Positions 55,540 to 63,331 of a DNA stretch of 64,000 nt are shown piece after piece. Where the stretch lies: positions 3,114 through 67,113 of the forward strand of contig JAFZZS010000002.1 in NCBI GenBank assembly GCA_017615655.1, given 5' to 3'. Every line of letters starts with the position of its first letter. Within the stretch, counting starts at the first letter, position 1. Under the pieces are notes generated by a model. That model saw only the letters and a program-made list of their open reading frames with translations, had not been told where the DNA came from and did not search any database. The stretch comes from Alphaproteobacteria bacterium. Its GTDB lineage: Bacteria; Pseudomonadota; Alphaproteobacteria; Rs-D84. The position numbers were made by a program, and so were the translations under genes.

Positions 55540-57552
55540 ATGCGTGTTTGTATAAATGTTGAAGATAAGCGTTGGAAAAAATATAAAATTGATTTTTCAA
55601 AAATTGTCAATGCGTCAGTTCCTGCTAAATACAAAAATTCTGAGGTTTCAATTACACTTGTTAATGATGATGAAATACGCAAAATAAATAAGAAGTATCG
55701 CAAGATAAATAAACCAACTAATGTCCTGTCGTTTGAGTTATCAGATGATATTTTGTTGGGTGATATATTTATTTCAATTGATACTGTGATGCGCGAATCC
55801 AAACAGGAACATATTTCAGTCGCAGAACATACCGCACATATGGTTGTCCATGGCATATTACATTTATTGGGATATGACCATATGACCGATAAAGATGCGC
55901 AAAAAATGGAAACAAAGGAAATAAATATATTACGTAAGTTGGGTTACAAAAATCCATATATAAACGATGGTGATATCTGTTCAGATAGAATGTGTTGCCC
56001 CGGTGAAAAAACAATAAGTGCGTTTAGACATTTTTTTGAGGGTGCACTTGGTCGAACGATATTATACGTATTGTTTGGTTTAATATCATCATTAGGTTTT
56101 GCGCCATTCTATATGTGGTGGTTTTCTATAATTGGTATTGGGGGGGCATACTTGTTAAGTATAAAAAGTTTACCTGGACATTCGGGAATAGGTAAATTTA
56201 TACGTATCTTTCCATTTGGCGCATTTTATGCAATTGCGATGTTCTGGTGGGTATTGCATAGTATTTATGTTATTCCAGAACTTGCGGCACAATTCGCAAT
56301 ATGGACGATACCAGGGCTTATAGGTATAGGTTTGGTTGGTGGTATTGTGTTTTCCTTTCCATTTATGGCTATTTCATCTGTACGGGCAAATGCGGCGTGT
56401 AGACCATTTTTATTTGCGGCTGTTTGGACCCTTGTGCTGTGGTGTCGTGAATGGATTTTTACTGGGTTTCCATGGAATCCGATCGCTAATATTGTCATTG
56501 GAAATGTATATTTATCCAATTCTATGTCATTGTATGGGGCATTAGGGTTAACATTTGTGATAATTGGTTTGATTGGTGCACTATCGGAAATTATCAGAAA
56601 TTTCCGTAATACGATGAATTGGTTTGCTATGTTTGTTTTTGTGTGTCTGGGTGCACTTGGTATTATTTATGGCGTTAGAAATATAAATGTTTCTGCCCAA
56701 AATCATGGGATTAATTCACCGCTTATTCGTATTATACAACCCGCGCAAAGTGCTGCACAAAAAGCAACACATTCACGTACGGCTGCGCTACAAAATGCAA
56801 ATTATAATATCAATCTGATGGTGTCGTTGGCATCCATAGATGGCGAATATGATTTGGCGGTATTTCCAGAAACAGCATATCCATTTGTTATGACAGATGG
56901 GGATATAATGTCAATTTCGCGTTTGCTATCAAAACCAATAGTTATTGGTTCCAATTATTACAGTGATGGTAATTTGTATAATTCACTGATTGTATCGGAC
57001 GTAGATGGCGTAATTTCTCATGTATACAGTAAGTCACATTTGGTACCGTTTGGCGAATATCGGCCATTTGGAAATATTATACCAACACCAGGACAATTAA
57101 CGCCTGGTAATGGACCAGAACTTATTAAAATGAATATCAAAGGACAAAGATTTGTATTTGCCCCTGCGGTTTGTTATGAAGTAATATTTTCTGATTCGTT
57201 GATACCAAACGGTCAAACACCAGATGCAATTATCAATATAACAAATGATAATTGGTTTGGTAAGACCCCTGGGACGTATCAGCATCTTGATATGGTGCGC
57301 AGATATGCAATTGAATCAGGCTTGCCGATTATTCGGGCAAATTATTCGGGTGTTAGTGCATTTATTGCCGCAGATGGTAATGTTGTTGCGTATATGCCCG
57401 TAAGCCAAACAGGTCAAATAGATGGCTTTGTATGGGGTGCGCACAAGACAATGTATCGTGTAATTGGTCGTGATATGTGGATGATAATCATTTTGATAAT
57501 TTCGTGCTTGGCGGTGATATGGATTTCAGAAGTTTCACGCAATCGTTCCTGA
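55540..57552 (+). CDS. In-frame fusion: endoribonuclease YbeY (N-terminal ~150 aa) plus apolipoprotein N-acyltransferase Lnt (C-terminal ~520 aa)
   Basis: YbeY metal site HGILHLLGYDH at residues ~104-114. The Lnt multi-TM region and CN-hydrolase domain (VFPETAYPF, CYEVIF) follow with no intervening stop. An internal Met that could start Lnt lies at 55990. Confidence 0.7.
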   Translation: MRVCINVEDKRWKKYKIDFSKIVNASVPAKYKNSEVSITLVNDDEIRKINKKYRKINKPTNVLSFELSDDILLGDIFISIDTVMRESKQEHISVAEHTAHMVVHGILHLLGYDHMTDKDAQKMETKEINILRKLGYKNPYINDGDICSDRMCCPGEKTISAFRHFFEGALGRTILYVLFGLISSLGFAPFYMWWFSIIGIGGAYLLSIKSLPGHSGIGKFIRIFPFGAFYAIAMFWWVLHSIYVIPELAAQFAIWTIPGLIGIGLVGGIVFSFPFMAISSVRANAACRPFLFAAVWTLVLWCREWIFTGFPWNPIANIVIGNVYLSNSMSLYGALGLTFVIIGLIGALSEIIRNFRNTMNWFAMFVFVCLGALGIIYGVRNINVSAQNHGINSPLIRIIQPAQSAAQKATHSRTAALQNANYNINLMVSLASIDGEYDLAVFPETAYPFVMTDGDIMSISRLLSKPIVIGSNYYSDGNLYNSLIVSDVDGVISHVYSKSHLVPFGEYRPFGNIIPTPGQLTPGNGPELIKMNIKGQRFVFAPAVCYEVIFSDSLIPNGQTPDAIINITNDNWFGKTPGTYQHLDMVRRYAIESGLPIIRANYSGVSAFIAADGNVVAYMPVSQTGQIDGFVWGAHKTMYRVIGRDMWMIIILIISCLAVIWISEVSRNRS

Positions 57553-57556
57553 AGAT

Positions 57557-57760
57557 TTATTGGTGAAAATAATTTAATATCCATACACGGATTGCAGATG
57601 ACAGATTTGTCTTTAATTTACGTGCCGAATCGATTTCATTAATAATCTTGGCCACAGATGTTGCACGAATTTCTGCGATTTCATGTAATGCGTCTATAAA
57701 TTCTGACTCAAGTGAAATACTGGTTTGATGCCCTGATAAAGAAACAGATATTTTCTTCAT
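57557..57760 (-). CDS. Ribbon-helix-helix (RHH_4 family) protein
   Basis: KISVSLSGHQTSISLESEFIDALHEIAEIRATSVAKIINEIDSAR...NLSSAIRVWIL matches the conserved alphaproteobacterial RHH_4 pattern; 67 aa. Confidence 0.6.
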   Translation of the reverse strand: MKKISVSLSGHQTSISLESEFIDALHEIAEIRATSVAKIINEIDSARKLKTNLSSAIRVWILNYFHQ

Positions 57761-57761
57761 T

Positions 57762-58196
57762 TTATATTTTACCCCCCATCAAACAGTCCAAAATGGCACG
57801 GTATGGATCATCGTATTGACGTAAAATGCTAAGCCCCAAATTATCTAGCATAAAGCAGGTGCCAAAAGAATCAAATGCAAACCAAAACAAATCATTACGA
57901 CCAAAGATTGTTTTGCCACGAATACTCGGGATGTTGGTTAAATCAGAATTTATTTGAAAAATATTTGGAGTTGGGTATTTGGAAGAACTGGCAAATTCTG
58001 TTGGACCAAATATATACCCAGATCCTAATTTCATGCCGCCATATTTTTGGTAAATACTTATCATATACGATGGTAACATAGCAGCCCGAATTTTTTGTAG
58101 GTTCAGGTTTACTAGGTTTATTTGTCCGGGTGTTGCCGCAAGGGCGCATGTGACATTTCGTTCTTTAATTTTTGTTAAGAAATCCTGCTCTGTCAT
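57762..58196 (-). CDS. SUKH-1 (SMI1/KNR4)-like protein, putative immunity-type domain
   Basis: MLPSYMISIYQKYGGMKLGSGYIFG matches the LPxxYxxFLxxxNGG core. LFWFAFDSFGTCFMLD matches the C-terminal IPFAxDGxGxxxCLD motif of SUKH-1. 144 aa; 1-nt gap to the RHH gene. Confidence 0.5.
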   Translation of the reverse strand: MTEQDFLTKIKERNVTCALAATPGQINLVNLNLQKIRAAMLPSYMISIYQKYGGMKLGSGYIFGPTEFASSSKYPTPNIFQINSDLTNIPSIRGKTIFGRNDLFWFAFDSFGTCFMLDNLGLSILRQYDDPYRAILDCLMGGKI

Positions 58197-58208: not shown

Positions 58209-58712
58209 TTATTGGCGGCGATTTGATGCGATATTTGCCGCCATTTGACTAAGTCTGTCCGCGACAGCATTACCACCGTTGCCTGCAAGTGTTGAATGTA
58301 TAGGTAAGTATATTTTTTTCTTGGGATTTGGTAACCATATTGTTTCATTCCCAGATTGTTCGATTATGAATCTATCAAGGTTTTGTGATAACGGAAAAGT
58401 GTAGCACATAAACAAATTATCAAGATTTAATTGTCCGCCCCATATCAGCGGTACACGAAATCGTATTGATAGATTATCCGGAATATTTTGCCCTGTTAAT
58501 AACGCCATAAATTCATCGCGATTAAGGTTCATTAATGCCAGTTCTTGGACACAGTCAGATAGCGACTTCATAAAAGTATGACAAAGTTCTTTGTATTGTT
58601 GAAACCAATCTGGTGATACTCGAACATTATGAGGATTTATGGGCATGACCGGCATGTCCGGCATTTTCAGGTCTTTTAGGCGATTTTCAGCGTTTGCTTG
58701 TGTCCATTGCAT
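58209..58712 (-). CDS. Hypothetical protein (167 aa) in toxin-position upstream of SUKH-like gene
   Basis: No recognisable motifs. 12-nt gap to the downstream gene and 1-nt overlap with the upstream gene. Confidence 0.45.
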   Translation of the reverse strand: MQWTQANAENRLKDLKMPDMPVMPINPHNVRVSPDWFQQYKELCHTFMKSLSDCVQELALMNLNRDEFMALLTGQNIPDNLSIRFRVPLIWGGQLNLDNLFMCYTFPLSQNLDRFIIEQSGNETIWLPNPKKKIYLPIHSTLAGNGGNAVADRLSQMAANIASNRRQ

Positions 58713-59626
58713 TAATTTTTACCTATGTAATTAGTAACAGTGCTTATGTACGTAGATATAGCATCAAATAATTCTTTGTCAAAGTCTTTTGGTTGTGTGT
58801 TTTGATTTTCTGACATAAACTTCTTGAATTGTTGTAAATCACTAAATGTAGATATAAGTTCATGTCTAGTTGTACCAGTTGGTGCAATTAAACAGCCACG
58901 TAAATGAATGTCGTCTGCACTATCCCCAAGGGTTTCTTCAAAAAGAGTTACAAGGGTTTGAAATGCATCGACTACATCGGTTACACTTGCACTTGATGCC
59001 CCAATCCACAGTGTCTGATCATAACCAAGCGCAACGATTGGATTGTTCAACTTTCCAATGTGTTTACATGGTTTCATTATATATCCTGCAGATTCAAATA
59101 TTCGGTTCATTTCCATTGCAAATGGACTGTGATTATTATTTGATTTTGTTGGTGCCATCCCAGTAGGTTGTGCAGAAAGTGATGGTTGGGTATTTAATTG
59201 TTGTGTTGGTGGTGAAAATCTTTTCTGTTTAGTTGCAACCCGATTTAGCGCAGGTGATAATGGACGGGCTTGGGCAGATGGGGGGGGCCCATAGCTACTT
59301 AATACAGTCGGCTGTGTTGTAGCAGGCTGTTGTGGTTCAATAACCTGAGGCTGAGGTTTTGGCTGAACAAGAAATGGAATTTTACGAAAACGCGGTCTGA
59401 CAATCAGGTAGAGCCCGGTCAGTGCCAATATAATAGCAACTACAAGTGAAACATAGAATTCTGGTTTTATATTTGTACGCGTGGCTTGAAGTTCTGAAAG
59501 ATATTCCCAATGTGCCGCGGAAAATATATCAAATCCATACCGCATATTCATCCAAAAGGTTGCTGCAAGCGCAACCGTCATCAACCACAATATACCAAGT
59601 AAAATTTTATCGAAATTTCTTTTCAT
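58712..59626 (-). CDS. Hypothetical bitopic membrane protein: 2 TM helices, Pro/Gln-rich linker, C-terminal ~130-aa Cys-containing globular domain
   Basis: TM segments ILLGILWLMTVALAATFWM and FYVSLVVAIILALTGLYLIV. Linker QPKPQPQVIEPQQPATTQPTVL...PPPSAQARPLSP...QPSLSAQPTGMAP. 304 aa, first gene of the cassette. Confidence 0.5.
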   Translation of the reverse strand: MKRNFDKILLGILWLMTVALAATFWMNMRYGFDIFSAAHWEYLSELQATRTNIKPEFYVSLVVAIILALTGLYLIVRPRFRKIPFLVQPKPQPQVIEPQQPATTQPTVLSSYGPPPSAQARPLSPALNRVATKQKRFSPPTQQLNTQPSLSAQPTGMAPTKSNNNHSPFAMEMNRIFESAGYIMKPCKHIGKLNNPIVALGYDQTLWIGASSASVTDVVDAFQTLVTLFEETLGDSADDIHLRGCLIAPTGTTRHELISTFSDLQQFKKFMSENQNTQPKDFDKELFDAISTYISTVTNYIGKN

Positions 59627-59669
59627 TTTACTTAAATTATATCACATTTATGATAAAGTAGAAAGTGTT

Positions 59670-60356
59670 ATGATAAAAACAGATGCCATTTTTGATGTGA
59701 TAGATGAATTTTCGTGCATATGGGTTCCGACTAGTGTCGAAGCCCCCGATCTTGCAAAAATATCAAACATTGTTATTGTGCAGAATAAAGAATTTTTGTC
59801 ATTACCAATTGGGGCAATAGGTCGGGTATGGCCGTGGCTGGAACATAGTAAAGTAAAATTATTAACACGTCTGGAATTTGATTTTAAAAATGATACTACA
59901 CCAGATATGGCGATGTCTGAATTAGCAACGAAGACAACAGAAGCTTTTAGACATGGGGCGTCAGGGGCGCAAATTTTTGTTCACATTAATAATATTCCAG
60001 AATTTGTAAAAATGATTTTACCGTTGCGGGACGATTTGTTTTTTGAACGGTATCTTTCTGTGGCGATAAATATTGATGAAATTAAAAACGGTAATGTAAA
60101 AGACGTCTTGGAATTGCTTGCAAAAATCAAACCCGATTCTGTTTTAGTAATTGCAGATGGCGATTCGTTTGACCCGAAGTCTGATTTTGTAGGGCGAATT
60201 TTCGGTATGCTTGAAAATTGGGGATGGGACTTTGCATTACATATTATGTTCGGTGGCAATATGATGCGTGTAAGTCAGGTTTTACGTCTTGTACAAAGAA
60301 TGCAACCTAAATTAATATCTGATTTGCGGGTCTTTATCATTCCACCCCAAGAATAA
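59670..60356 (+). CDS. Hypothetical protein (228 aa), divergent from the 4-gene cassette
   Basis: ORF with reasonable codon usage and no recognisable family. 20-nt convergent overlap with the trmB 3' end. Confidence 0.4.
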   Translation: MIKTDAIFDVIDEFSCIWVPTSVEAPDLAKISNIVIVQNKEFLSLPIGAIGRVWPWLEHSKVKLLTRLEFDFKNDTTPDMAMSELATKTTEAFRHGASGAQIFVHINNIPEFVKMILPLRDDLFFERYLSVAINIDEIKNGNVKDVLELLAKIKPDSVLVIADGDSFDPKSDFVGRIFGMLENWGWDFALHIMFGGNMMRVSQVLRLVQRMQPKLISDLRVFIIPPQE

Positions 60357-61005: not shown

Positions 61006-62586
61006 TTGATAATGAGAACAGGTTTAAGTGAAGATTTAATTGCGCGTGTTTTGGGCGGTGCACCAAAGTATACTTTGGCAGAACTTGAGGAAAAATTTCC
61101 ATTGCGTGTATTACCCGATGGGGCTCTGGTAACCCGATTCGCACCAAGTCCAACCGGTTTTATGCATATTGGAAATCTTTATGGGGCGTTGATTGATTAT
61201 AAATTAGCGCGTCAATCGGGTGGTGTGTTTATGTTACGCATCGAAGATACTGATACAAAACGTGAAGTTTCTGGGGCGGTTGAGATAGTCAAAAATGCGA
61301 TGCAAAGTTTCGGCTTAGAGTATAATAATGATGAACAATATGGTCCGTATTATCAATCGCAACGCAGGGAAATATACCATTCTGTGGCGGCGGAATTATT
61401 AAGAACAGGGCATGCATATCCATGCTTTTTAACGGCACAAGATATGGAAAAAATTCGCGCGGAACAATCGTCTGCGGGGTTTGCAACGGGTATCTATGGC
61501 GAATTTGCACGTGATCGTGATATAACCGAAGAAGACATTATAAAGCATCTTGATAATGGCGAGATACCGTCTATTCGGCTGTATTCAACTGGTGACCCAG
61601 CAAAAAGAATTTTCTGTAAAGATGCTGTTCGTGGGTCAATTGGATTTCCAGAAAATAATGAAGACATTGTCTTAGTAAAATCAAATGATGGATTACCAAC
61701 ATACCATTTCGCGCATTTATGTGATGACCACTTTATGCGTACAACACATGTTGTTCGTGGTGAAGAATGGTTACCATCATTGCCATTACACTATCAATTG
61801 TTTCGCATGATGGAATGGACACCACCAATTTATATTCATACGGCAACGTTGGATAAAATAGATGCAGAAACAGGTAAGCAACGTAAAATGTCTAAACGTA
61901 AAGACCCAGAAAGTAATGTCGCATTTTTCTTGCAAGAAGGTTGGCCAACGGATGCGGTAATTGAATATTTAGGAAATATTTTGGCATCTGGGTACGAAGA
62001 AGCAAAATTAAAGGGTGCGGTAAAAAATTTCTGGGAATACGAAATGAAACCAAAAAAGATACCAATGTCGGGTGGTTTGTTCGATATGAAGAAATTAGAG
62101 TGGTGGTCGAAAGAATACATTGGTGCAATGTCTGTTCCTGATTTAGTAAAAAGTGTTATCGATTGGGCAAATGAATACGGTGATGAAAAACAAAAAATGC
62201 AGGTCGCAGATACCGATTATTTGACTGCGGTGCTTTCTATTGAACGCGACAATCCACGCCGTATACGTAAAGATTTTATTACATGGAAACAGACATTGGA
62301 AATAGAAGAATTTTTCTGGGATGAATTGTTTGTGGCGAACAAGGAATATAAATATAATACGGATGTATTGAACGCATTTTTAGAAACGTTTAATATTGCT
62401 GATGATAAAGATGTGTGGTGGAATAAAATAGTTGCGATTGCCGAAAAATTCGGCGTTAAAAATGGTGATGTTGCGATGAATTTGCGAGTCGCACTTTCAG
62501 GGCGCATGAATACGCCGGACCTTTATTCTATTATGCAGGTTATGGGCGAAGGACGGGTTAAGGAGAGAATAAAGAATGCAATTTAA
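61006..62586 (+). CDS. gltX: Glutamate--tRNA ligase (long form with extended C-terminal domain)
   Basis: Class I HIGH motif (PTGFMHIGN) and KMSKS (KMSKR); 526 aa. Alternative start at 61012. Confidence 0.85.
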   Translation: MIMRTGLSEDLIARVLGGAPKYTLAELEEKFPLRVLPDGALVTRFAPSPTGFMHIGNLYGALIDYKLARQSGGVFMLRIEDTDTKREVSGAVEIVKNAMQSFGLEYNNDEQYGPYYQSQRREIYHSVAAELLRTGHAYPCFLTAQDMEKIRAEQSSAGFATGIYGEFARDRDITEEDIIKHLDNGEIPSIRLYSTGDPAKRIFCKDAVRGSIGFPENNEDIVLVKSNDGLPTYHFAHLCDDHFMRTTHVVRGEEWLPSLPLHYQLFRMMEWTPPIYIHTATLDKIDAETGKQRKMSKRKDPESNVAFFLQEGWPTDAVIEYLGNILASGYEEAKLKGAVKNFWEYEMKPKKIPMSGGLFDMKKLEWWSKEYIGAMSVPDLVKSVIDWANEYGDEKQKMQVADTDYLTAVLSIERDNPRRIRKDFITWKQTLEIEEFFWDELFVANKEYKYNTDVLNAFLETFNIADDKDVWWNKIVAIAEKFGVKNGDVAMNLRVALSGRMNTPDLYSIMQVMGEGRVKERIKNAI

Positions 62587-63331
62587 ACCAAATCTTAATT
62601 TATTGAATGAATGGCGCGATGCCGAACATGCGGTAAATTTTGCTAGTAATACCGCATTTATTTCTGTGTTTAAACGTGATAACAAAACACTGGTATATAT
62701 GTGCGACCGACACAAATTAAACATATCTTTTAATATGGTTGATATGTGTTTTGCTGATGATTTCGGTGTAAAGCCAGATGTTTTATTGACCGAAATGGAA
62801 AATGATGGTTTTAAATGGAAATTAAATTGGCATGGGTTGCAGGATAATACGCTTGCCTATGCGGCGGCTGTGGCGGCAAAGAGAAATTTACCGATTGTAT
62901 TCGCAGATTTATCAGATGATCAAATGGTTAAAGTCATAAATCGTGGATTTCTAGATAATAAAATTACAGTTGCAGATTTAGGTAGAGTTCTTGGAAAATC
63001 GGGTGGGCCAGATTCCCATGGAAATCTAGATCAGCAAATGTTGGCGTATTTAGATAGGTTTGGACGCAATCCATTTATGTTACAAAATATTGCCGCAGCA
63101 TTGAATAAATATGATACAGTATTTTGTATATTTGGCATAGGACATTATGAATGCCAACGAAGTGCATTGGAAGATATGTTGGGCAAACCAGAGTATATAA
63201 CACAAATCAAAAATATGCGTGGCGATTTTTCTAATTTAAATATAACACCAATGAAATTGTATGATTTTGAACAGCCAAATACTATGGGGGTAATTATAAA
63301 TGACAAAAACAAGACGTTTGGTTCGCGCTAA
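62576..63331 (+). CDS. Hypothetical protein (251 aa), translationally coupled to gltX
   Basis: 11-nt overlap with the gltX 3' end; no recognisable family. Confidence 0.4.
   Translation: MQFKPNLNLLNEWRDAEHAVNFASNTAFISVFKRDNKTLVYMCDRHKLNISFNMVDMCFADDFGVKPDVLLTEMENDGFKWKLNWHGLQDNTLAYAAAVAAKRNLPIVFADLSDDQMVKVINRGFLDNKITVADLGRVLGKSGGPDSHGNLDQQMLAYLDRFGRNPFMLQNIAAALNKYDTVFCIFGIGHYECQRSALEDMLGKPEYITQIKNMRGDFSNLNITPMKLYDFEQPNTMGVIINDKNKTFGSR

Follow-up and report, generated by a model that had tools for sequence, protein, structure and literature searches.

The locus examined here raises the question of whether a small protein encoded directly upstream of a SUKH-like gene is a toxin, and of what kind. 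The protein is 167 amino acids (aa) long and its gene lies in a stretch of 64,000 nucleotides (the window) from an Alphaproteobacteria bacterium of the lineage Rs-D84 (assembly GCA_017615655.1, contig JAFZZS010000002.1, positions 3,114 to 67,113 of the forward strand). An original prediction, made from the letters alone, had described an open reading frame (ORF) of no recognisable family in the toxin slot of a possible toxin-immunity cassette, with perhaps a new toxin fold. By descent, the gene is almost certainly a toxin domain of the HNH type found in E. coli YhhZ. The histidines that are conserved in its relatives are replaced in the window protein, and the overall explanation that we favor, as the probable one, is a complex between a domesticated pseudo-nuclease and its SUKH partner. 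The two genes are the following.

58209..58712, minus strand: 167-aa gene, for a YhhZ-type HNH (His-Me finger) domain that stands alone and has lost its His, based on an ATG-started ORF, its homologs, an AlphaFold 2 (AF2) model, and hhalign
57762..58196, minus strand: 144-aa gene in the place of an immunity gene, for a SUKH partner that is divergent within the YrhA family, based on NF038335 and hhalign

The ORF had been placed and measured correctly by the original prediction; its strand, which had not been given, is minus.

Homology of the 167-aa protein to the HNH domain of YhhZ

Searched directly, the 167-aa protein matched no family in Pfam, NCBIfam, PADLOC, or PHROGs, and none among PDB sequences, where a single chance match was found (CHMP4B, E 0.056). 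The decisive lead to YhhZ came from its partner, whose family model, NF038335, is named for E. coli YrhA. In E. coli K-12, yrhA directly follows yhhZ, which is annotated as 'putative endonuclease' and encodes an Hcp domain followed by a C-terminal region with a weak, sub-threshold Pfam match to HNH. YhhZ is group 32 in a classification of His-Me fingers, in which it is termed hypothetical (PMC5714182). In architecture it is an effector of the Hcp-HNH type, as known from type VI secretion systems (T6SS).

A profile made from 32 homologs of the 167-aa protein, which represents the window subfamily (A1), was searched against 1.8 billion cluster representatives. This yielded 76 proteins, of which the His-bearing relatives had E values of 2e-8 to 1e-5 for the whole library. 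Some of the proteins, from Alphaproteobacteria, are longer (P0155, P0172, P0179, and others) and bear the domain at their C-terminus. The core of these long relatives reads PENFNVHxKIPxEYGGxxDFSNLxLIQTHPxHxxIHxFIDxQ and contains an HNH-type pattern (H..GG..N..H..H), at the equivalent place of which the window protein has SIRFRVPLIWGGQLNLDNLFMCYTFPLSQNLDRFIIEQ. Over the family as a whole, the core motif is collinear, with the form H/R..P..GG..N..P..H/S..H/D.

Further evidence was obtained with hhalign. A broad family profile (A2) aligned with residues 254-387 of YhhZ with a probability of 98.5% and an E value of 2.9e-15, and A1 aligned over 146 columns, with a probability of 99.1% and an E value of 1.2e-18, with an alignment of the His-bearing subfamily and the YhhZ C-terminus (A6). 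Comparison of P0179 with YhhZ by BLASTP gave an E value of 7e-13, with 35% identity over 113 residues. Because the 167-aa domain is homologous to YhhZ and a YrhA/SUKH gene stands next to it, the cassette descends from a known nuclease toxin-immunity module; it is homologous, gene for gene, to the pair made up of the YhhZ C-terminus and YrhA. The alignment of A2 to YhhZ thus disposes of the view that the protein belongs to no recognisable family, and remote-homology searching, which had been proposed as a check, led to a known HNH toxin domain, not to a new fold.

If the resemblance to HNH domains were spurious, the protein would have an unrelated and new fold. The A2-YhhZ and A1-A6 results effectively exclude this explanation, to which we give almost no weight in view of the profile-profile E values (1.2e-18 and 2.9e-15 over about 130-146 columns), the collinear motif and the modelled beta-beta-alpha core (see below), and the pairing with YrhA-family genes, which is conserved from E. 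coli to the Rs-D84 lineage.

The SUKH partner

The 144-aa protein matched NF038335 (YrhA family) with an E value of 4e-4 and a score of 20.3 bits, which is under the 55-bit cut-off. The same model was matched by 27 of the 28 aligned members of the partner family, the partners of the distant relatives included, with a best E value of 5e-20. The partners in three of the distant loci (L010, L013, and L015, described below) pass the cut-off with 66-72 bits, and fragment 1 of E. coli YrhA scored 82 bits. Pfam matches among the 28 members were to SMI1_KNR4 (8), SUKH_6 (5), and SUKH_5 (2); the sole other one, to DUF2430 in one member, was at chance level (E 0.11). An alignment of the partner family (A3) matched E. 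coli YrhA by hhalign with an E value of 1.9e-5. These comparisons place the 144-aa gene, as a divergent member, in the YrhA/SUKH family, and its earlier description as SUKH-like was well founded. An immunity-family gene is therefore found immediately downstream of the 167-aa gene. The median pairwise identity was 0.62 for the 167-aa protein versus 0.55 for the SUKH protein.

Fold and active-site residues

The AF2 model of the 167-aa protein had a predicted local distance difference test score (pLDDT) of 83, with values of 92-94 in the core blocks. DSSP assigned to this model a strand at residues 81-85, a second strand at 100-104, and a helix at 105-117, which together make up a beta-beta-alpha unit. 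Within the limits of a predicted model and profile alignment, the fold is thereby shown to be of the beta-beta-alpha (His-Me finger) type. The top lists obtained with Foldseek in PDB and BFVD consisted mostly of HNH domains (Cas8-HNH, ZRANB3 HNH, Gme HNH, and many phage HNH endonucleases). The new toxin fold that had been envisaged is contradicted by the homology to YhhZ and by structure prediction, another check that had been proposed. The two segments considered below are as follows.

58362..58472, minus strand: beta-beta-alpha core, residues 81-117, SIRFRVPLIWGGQLNLDNLFMCYTFPLSQNLDRFIIE, from DSSP on the model and column correspondence
58212..58283, minus strand: C-terminal tail, residues 144-167, GNGGNAVADRLSQMAANIASNRRQ, with an invariant GGN..DR and a pLDDT of 44-58

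In the His-bearing subfamily (A6), H96, H121, H125, and the Asn are invariant or nearly so. The conserved His columns hold R84 (codon 58461-58463), S109, and D113 in the window protein, while the Asn is kept as N99. Residue states, like the synteny reported below, were counted in 80 species loci, out of 220 genomes with a relative. R84, N99, and D113 are invariant in 80/80 species; at position 109, 76 species have Ser and 4 have Ala. The catalytic histidine is thus missing from the end of strand 1, R84 occupying the column of this otherwise invariant His in 80/80 cases. The metal-ligand positions of the core helix are S/A109 and D113, of which the Asp could still bind a metal, and the structural N99 is retained in all 80. 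Judged by spacing, the single strand His matches the leading one of the two in the HH dyad of YhhZ and of colicin E9. To judge from its residues, the window protein lacks the canonical His-Me centre, regardless of which His serves as the general base. The statement that the protein lacks an HNH signature was thus literally right, since the histidines are gone, and misleading all the same, since the domain is HNH-derived.

We also surveyed residue states in 50 family sequences (49 proteins from the A1 search and the YhhZ C-terminus). All three His were kept in 27 of them and none in 18, and each of the 15 proteins with an MW[DE]WS-type N-terminus kept all three. By this measure the family is split into a putatively nuclease-competent class and a His-less class.

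In the tail, G146, G147, N148, D152, and R153 are invariant in 80/80 species. A GG...DR tail is common to the long His-bearing relatives (SGGK.KHDRSVYAGF...GR), but neither YhhZ nor the short MWEWS forms have one. The GGN..DR tail probably folds on a partner; partner binding and an export signal are both possibilities for its role.

Operon, conservation, and inheritance

The 167-aa gene is the second of four genes in a tight minus-strand operon (304-aa, 167-aa, 144-aa, RHH_4), the two other members of which are the following.

58712..59626, minus strand: 304-aa first operon gene, with a membrane domain and a NERD-like domain, based on an AF2 model, a hidden Markov model (HMM), and hhalign
57557..57760, minus strand: 67-aa ribbon-helix-helix (RHH) protein, RHH_4, last operon gene (Pfam PF13467, E 1.1e-21)

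The TAA stop codon of the 304-aa gene and the ATG of the 167-aa gene share one base, in a TAATG overlap. The 144-aa ORF starts 12 bases past the stop codon of the 167-aa gene, and the RHH_4 ORF begins one base past that of the 144-aa gene.

The 167-aa protein has 217 homologs of 166-171 aa, with 57-86% identity, all of them from uncultured Alphaproteobacteria, and relatives of the gene were found in 220 GTDB species genomes (one genome per species scanned). These genomes are from Candidatus Enterousia or unclassified Alphaproteobacteria of rumen and gut, and one of them is a circular chromosome of 958,618 bp. The order Rs-D84 has reduced genomes of about 0.7-1.6 Mb (PMC12306168). The ratio of nonsynonymous to synonymous substitution rates (dN/dS; median pairwise, NG86, dS 0.05-1) was 0.066 and 0.063 for the 167-aa and 144-aa genes, respectively, and 0.14 and 0.31 for the 304-aa and RHH genes. 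The homologs, the spread over 220 genomes, and the low dN/dS indicate that the 167-aa ORF is a real, constrained gene and not a chance ORF.

The gene order (divergent 228-aa, 304-aa, 167-aa, 144-aa, RHH) was the same in 80/80 loci, with a few absences at contig ends, and the operon is likewise arranged in loci L004-L009. The operon is flanked by the housekeeping genes trmB, gltX, and a ybeY-lnt fusion, which is also the case in loci L004-L009, and GC content is even over the region, with no compositional island. The pair is vertically inherited and under strong purifying selection. Because of the fixed synteny, the housekeeping flanks, the uniform GC content, and the low dN/dS, we conclude that it does not behave as a mobile polymorphic toxin cassette would; the polymorphism, mobility, and variable context of polymorphic toxin systems were not observed. 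Furthermore, the 167-aa protein has no N-terminal extension or delivery domain, its whole length consisting of the toxin domain and the tail. The original prediction was right to assign the gene to the toxin position, in that the cassette descends from a toxin-immunity pair. Toxin activity itself is now doubtful, in view of the replaced histidines and the vertical inheritance.

Arguments for a pair that is still active

Several points weigh against the interpretation of the 167-aa protein as a domesticated pseudo-nuclease. With respect to its ancestry, A1 alone, compared by hhalign with the single YhhZ sequence, gave an E value of 0.13, which is not significant. The YhhZ assignment of the window subfamily is therefore transitive, passing through the His-bearing subfamily, with each step being strong. 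Searches of PDB sequences with A2 and of Pfam with all members gave matches at chance level (among the latter Col-Pyo_DNase, E 0.15, and HNH_3, E 0.28, one member each) and did not detect HNH, and no Foldseek match in PDB or BFVD was individually significant. With respect to activity, we infer the loss of nuclease function from residue identity alone. A metal could still be bound at D113 and N99, another conserved His (H139) is found immediately beyond the core, and PacI is a His-Me finger with a non-His base, provided by an omega loop (PMC5714182). Moreover, strong co-conservation of a toxin-like and an immunity-like gene is also to be expected of an active addiction module.

These last considerations are those that would favor a toxin-immunity or addiction pair that is still active, in which the 167-aa protein harms cells without the SUKH partner and loss of the operon is lethal. 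The harm would be done either by a non-canonical centre (R84, N99, D113, H139), an alternative general base being known in PacI and both N99 and D113 being retained, or by non-catalytic binding of DNA. Such a pair would also agree with the homology to nuclease toxins, with the immunity-family gene immediately downstream, and with the co-conservation of the two genes, which is without exception. We nevertheless consider it unlikely, because none of the three conserved His is left in any of the 80 species, a delivery domain, polymorphism, and mobility are lacking, the dN/dS is 0.066, the synteny is fixed among housekeeping genes, and PADLOC gave no match. A type II toxin-antitoxin system with an RHH antitoxin was also considered and rejected, since the RHH_4 gene comes last, after the SUKH gene, and the operon contains no known toxin family of such systems.

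Relatives with and without the conserved histidines

His-complete relatives of the domain were found in three independent, divergent uncultured Alphaproteobacteria, in clusters that combine a VirD4/TraG-like gene, a His-complete HNH gene, and a YrhA-family SUKH gene.

L010:3605-7477: cluster with P0179
L013:3699-7719: cluster with P0197
L015:3748-7033: cluster with P0200

The three proteins are encoded directly downstream of the gene for the VirD4/TraG-like coupling protein, and a YrhA-type partner gene follows each of them immediately. His-complete HNH proteins at VirD4-like genes have an MW[DE]WS N-terminus and often a Pro/Gln-rich extension. No canonical VirB components were detected by Pfam near these VirD4-like genes. 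The His-bearing proteins encoded next to VirD4-like genes look like real secreted toxins, and their combination with SUKH looks like an undescribed type IV-associated nuclease effector-immunity pair.

His-less clusters in other lineages were also found, with the same layout as in the window. L012, a Rickettsiales metagenome-assembled genome, has genes for proteins of 333, 171, and 140 aa and an RHH_4 gene by ybeY-lnt, and L097 has a gene for a NERD-like membrane protein of 389 aa, followed by genes for proteins of 196 and 148 aa and an RHH_4 gene. From these clusters, the ancestral unit seems to have consisted of a membrane NERD-like protein, an HNH domain, and a SUKH protein. It seems to have given rise to two branches: a nuclease-competent one with a link to VirD4, and a His-less one, to which the window belongs, with a link to RHH_4.

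The existence of nuclease-competent, VirD4-adjacent relatives in related uncultured Alphaproteobacteria from similar samples would fit with a module centred on immunity, in which the SUKH protein neutralises His-bearing YhhZ-like toxins from neighbouring Alphaproteobacteria and the dead toxin serves as a stabiliser, decoy, or regulator. This is improbable, because the SUKH protein of the window is far from the cognate partners (21% identity, and 20 bits with NF038335 versus 66-72 bits), it is under purifying rather than diversifying selection, and it is less conserved than the dead toxin (identity of 0.55 versus 0.62).

The same relatives are of interest for another explanation, that the 167-aa protein is a secreted effector other than a nuclease, destined for other cells, whose tail (GGN..DR...R) would serve for export and derive from the VirD4-linked forms. 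The export role of the tail is speculation, and we deem the explanation slightly less probable still than a module centred on immunity. The tail motif is common to the long His-bearing relatives encoded next to VirD4-like genes, and a lineage with a reduced genome probably depends on other cells; on the other hand, no VirD4 homolog was found in the 64-kb window, VirD4 is not part of the conserved five-gene order, all of it accounted for, at the 80 species loci (where no search was aimed at VirD4), and the 167-aa protein lacks the MW[DE]WS extension that the VirD4-linked forms have at the N-terminus.

The 304-aa membrane protein

The 304-aa protein consists of a membrane domain at the N-terminus (helices 2-30 and 55-76), followed by a disordered Pro/Gln-rich linker and a C-terminal alpha/beta domain. 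Its AF2 model had a pLDDT of 81, and the best PDB match of this model was 3fov, an alphaproteobacterial protein of unknown function (E 0.018, probability 0.92). An HMM of the family (A5) matched the proteins encoded upstream of virD4 in L010, L013, and L015 with E values of 1e-12 to 2e-6. The members of the family are located as follows.

58712-59626 of the window, minus strand
L010:1149-3453
L013:1145-3271
L015:1855-3730
L097:3792-4961

They share a membrane domain with a conserved W.F...HW..W at the N-terminus, a low-complexity linker, and a NERD-like C-terminal domain. Comparison by hhalign of the N-terminal membrane domain with that of the proteins encoded upstream of virD4 gave a probability of 93%, and comparison of the C-terminal domain with that of the relatives was weak (probability of 67%, E 5e-5). 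The C-terminal domains of the relatives gave sub-threshold NERD matches over the whole profile in 4/8 proteins (E 0.0055 to 0.12), and about 24 residues that form an acidic segment in the relatives are missing from the window copy. At its C-terminus, the 304-aa protein appears to have a truncated NERD-like domain. Because of the missing residues, this second nuclease-like domain of the operon also looks degenerate.

Regulatory gene and neighbouring genes

The RHH_4 protein is likely a DNA-binding regulator. Its gene was found in 78/80 species loci, the absences being at contig ends. Scans for promoters and terminators around the operon gave background levels. The 64-kb window holds no second copy of the 167-aa or 144-aa family, and Rfam, run on both strands of the whole window, reported no family at the gathering score.

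A 228-aa gene without a family match (59670-60356, plus strand) is divergent from the operon over a gap of 43 bp (59627-59669). It is present at this position in 76/80 species loci, with a dN/dS of 0.25, and may share regulation with the operon. On the other side, a 670-aa ORF (55540-57552, plus strand) encodes YbeY (rRNA maturation endoribonuclease) fused to apolipoprotein N-acyltransferase (LNT_N and CN_hydrolase). The ybeY-lnt fusion was also called in relatives (596-672 aa), convergent with the RHH gene of the operon; in the window, 4 bases separate the two stop codons. Farther away, between gltX and a HlyIII-family gene, lies a 251-aa ORF (62576-63331, plus strand) with no Pfam match on record. 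A gene of equal length was called at the matching position on L001, a contig with identical sequence, and no gene was found between gltX and HlyIII at this position in L004-L009.

Proposed role of the complex

According to the explanation that we favor, the module would have been domesticated in Rs-D84 (Candidatus Enterousia and relatives), where the His is replaced, the delivery region is absent, and the genes are locked in a four-gene operon. The 167-aa protein would no longer cleave DNA by the His-Me mechanism, as suggested by the identity of its residues. It would act as a non-catalytic subunit that binds the SUKH partner through the retained toxin-immunity interface. It would probably also bind nucleic acid, by analogy with inactivated His-Me fingers such as Smad MH1. 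The 304-aa protein, which is translationally coupled to it, might keep it at the inner membrane, and the RHH_4 protein is a candidate regulator of the operon. Whether the function of the 167-aa protein is of this non-toxic, binding-only type appears evenly balanced. All of the genome-reduced species examined have kept it, which argues for an important function of the complex; genes kept in such small genomes usually are important. Should the pseudo-nuclease have gained a role in the cell, it would offer a tractable case in which to study the domestication of conflict systems.

A more far-reaching version can be put forward tentatively. A toxin-immunity module with a NERD-like membrane companion, stripped of both nuclease centres, may have become an indispensable housekeeping complex. 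One conceivable form of it is a membrane-tethered device that binds DNA or a regulator, present order-wide in genome-reduced gut Alphaproteobacteria, and the ancestral cluster might, with similar reservations, also have held the VirD4-like coupling protein. If true, the operon would clearly illustrate the exaptation of a conflict system into the core genome, and the VirD4-adjacent, His-bearing relatives would make up a family, so far undescribed, of HNH effectors that are type IV-associated and have SUKH immunity.

Comparison with known systems

The fold and the type of pair, an HNH domain with a SUKH protein as in YhhZ and YrhA, are already known, so that a hypothetical protein with a possible new toxin fold is replaced by a specific identity. 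Three features appear, provisionally, to be undescribed: the His-less stand-alone form that is more conserved than its partner, its fixation together with a degenerate NERD-like membrane protein and RHH_4 in the core genome of a genome-reduced order, and the nuclease-competent relatives linked to VirD4-like genes. In the literature searched, which was limited, only the assignment of YhhZ to group 32 and general descriptions of Enterousia bear on these points. The fate of the pair is unusual: despite having lost the catalytic histidines, the toxin-like protein is better conserved than its partner, and the two are fixed in genomes of about 1 Mb. The VirD4-adjacent relatives may in turn represent a new class of secreted HNH toxins in Alphaproteobacteria.

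The HNH motif of the DNases of colicin E9 and pyocin S2 is collinear with that of the present family (HH.KP...GG......N......P..H...H versus VH.K.P...GG.....N.......HP.H...H). Comparison by hhalign of the family with the colicin E9 DNase (of sequence identical to 1bxi_B) aligned the motif as expected, with an E value (0.21) that is not significant. Immunity proteins of colicins are four-helix Im proteins, not SUKH proteins.

Loss of the catalytic His with conservation of the fold and of a binding role has been described for the Smad MH1 domain, which binds DNA, and for the nuclease-like domain of ENPP (PMC5714182). The functional analogy with these inactive His-Me fingers is a proposal, as is DNA binding by the window protein, and they differ from it in belonging to unrelated eukaryotic lineages and in having no immunity partner.

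An HNH DNase fused to Hcp, Hcp-ET1 of Shiga toxin-producing E. coli, has a downstream immunity gene, and its antibacterial activity is reported to have been shown experimentally (Ma et al. 2017, as cited in PMC6730261). From this description, and not by sequence, it can be likened to YhhZ as belonging to the same class of architecture. The window protein differs from it in having neither the catalytic histidines nor the Hcp carrier.

The window can also be compared with the VirD4-adjacent relatives P0179, P0197, and P0200, which share with it the domain family, the YrhA-type partner, and homologs of the 304-aa protein in the cluster. In contrast with the window, they keep all three His, have the MW[DE]WS N-terminus, and lack an RHH_4 gene.

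A further counterpart is the C-terminal HNH domain of YhhZ with YrhA; no biochemical characterisation of YhhZ was found in the literature searched. About 135 residues are homologous, from a helical lead-in through the beta-beta-alpha core to the beta segment after it, and in both systems a YrhA-family SUKH gene follows immediately and is tightly coupled. The window protein differs from YhhZ by the absence of Hcp or any other delivery domain, by the replacement of the first His of the HH dyad by R84 and of the helix His by S109, and by its additional conserved C-terminal tail, and its gene belongs to a four-gene operon of the core chromosome, not to an effector island.

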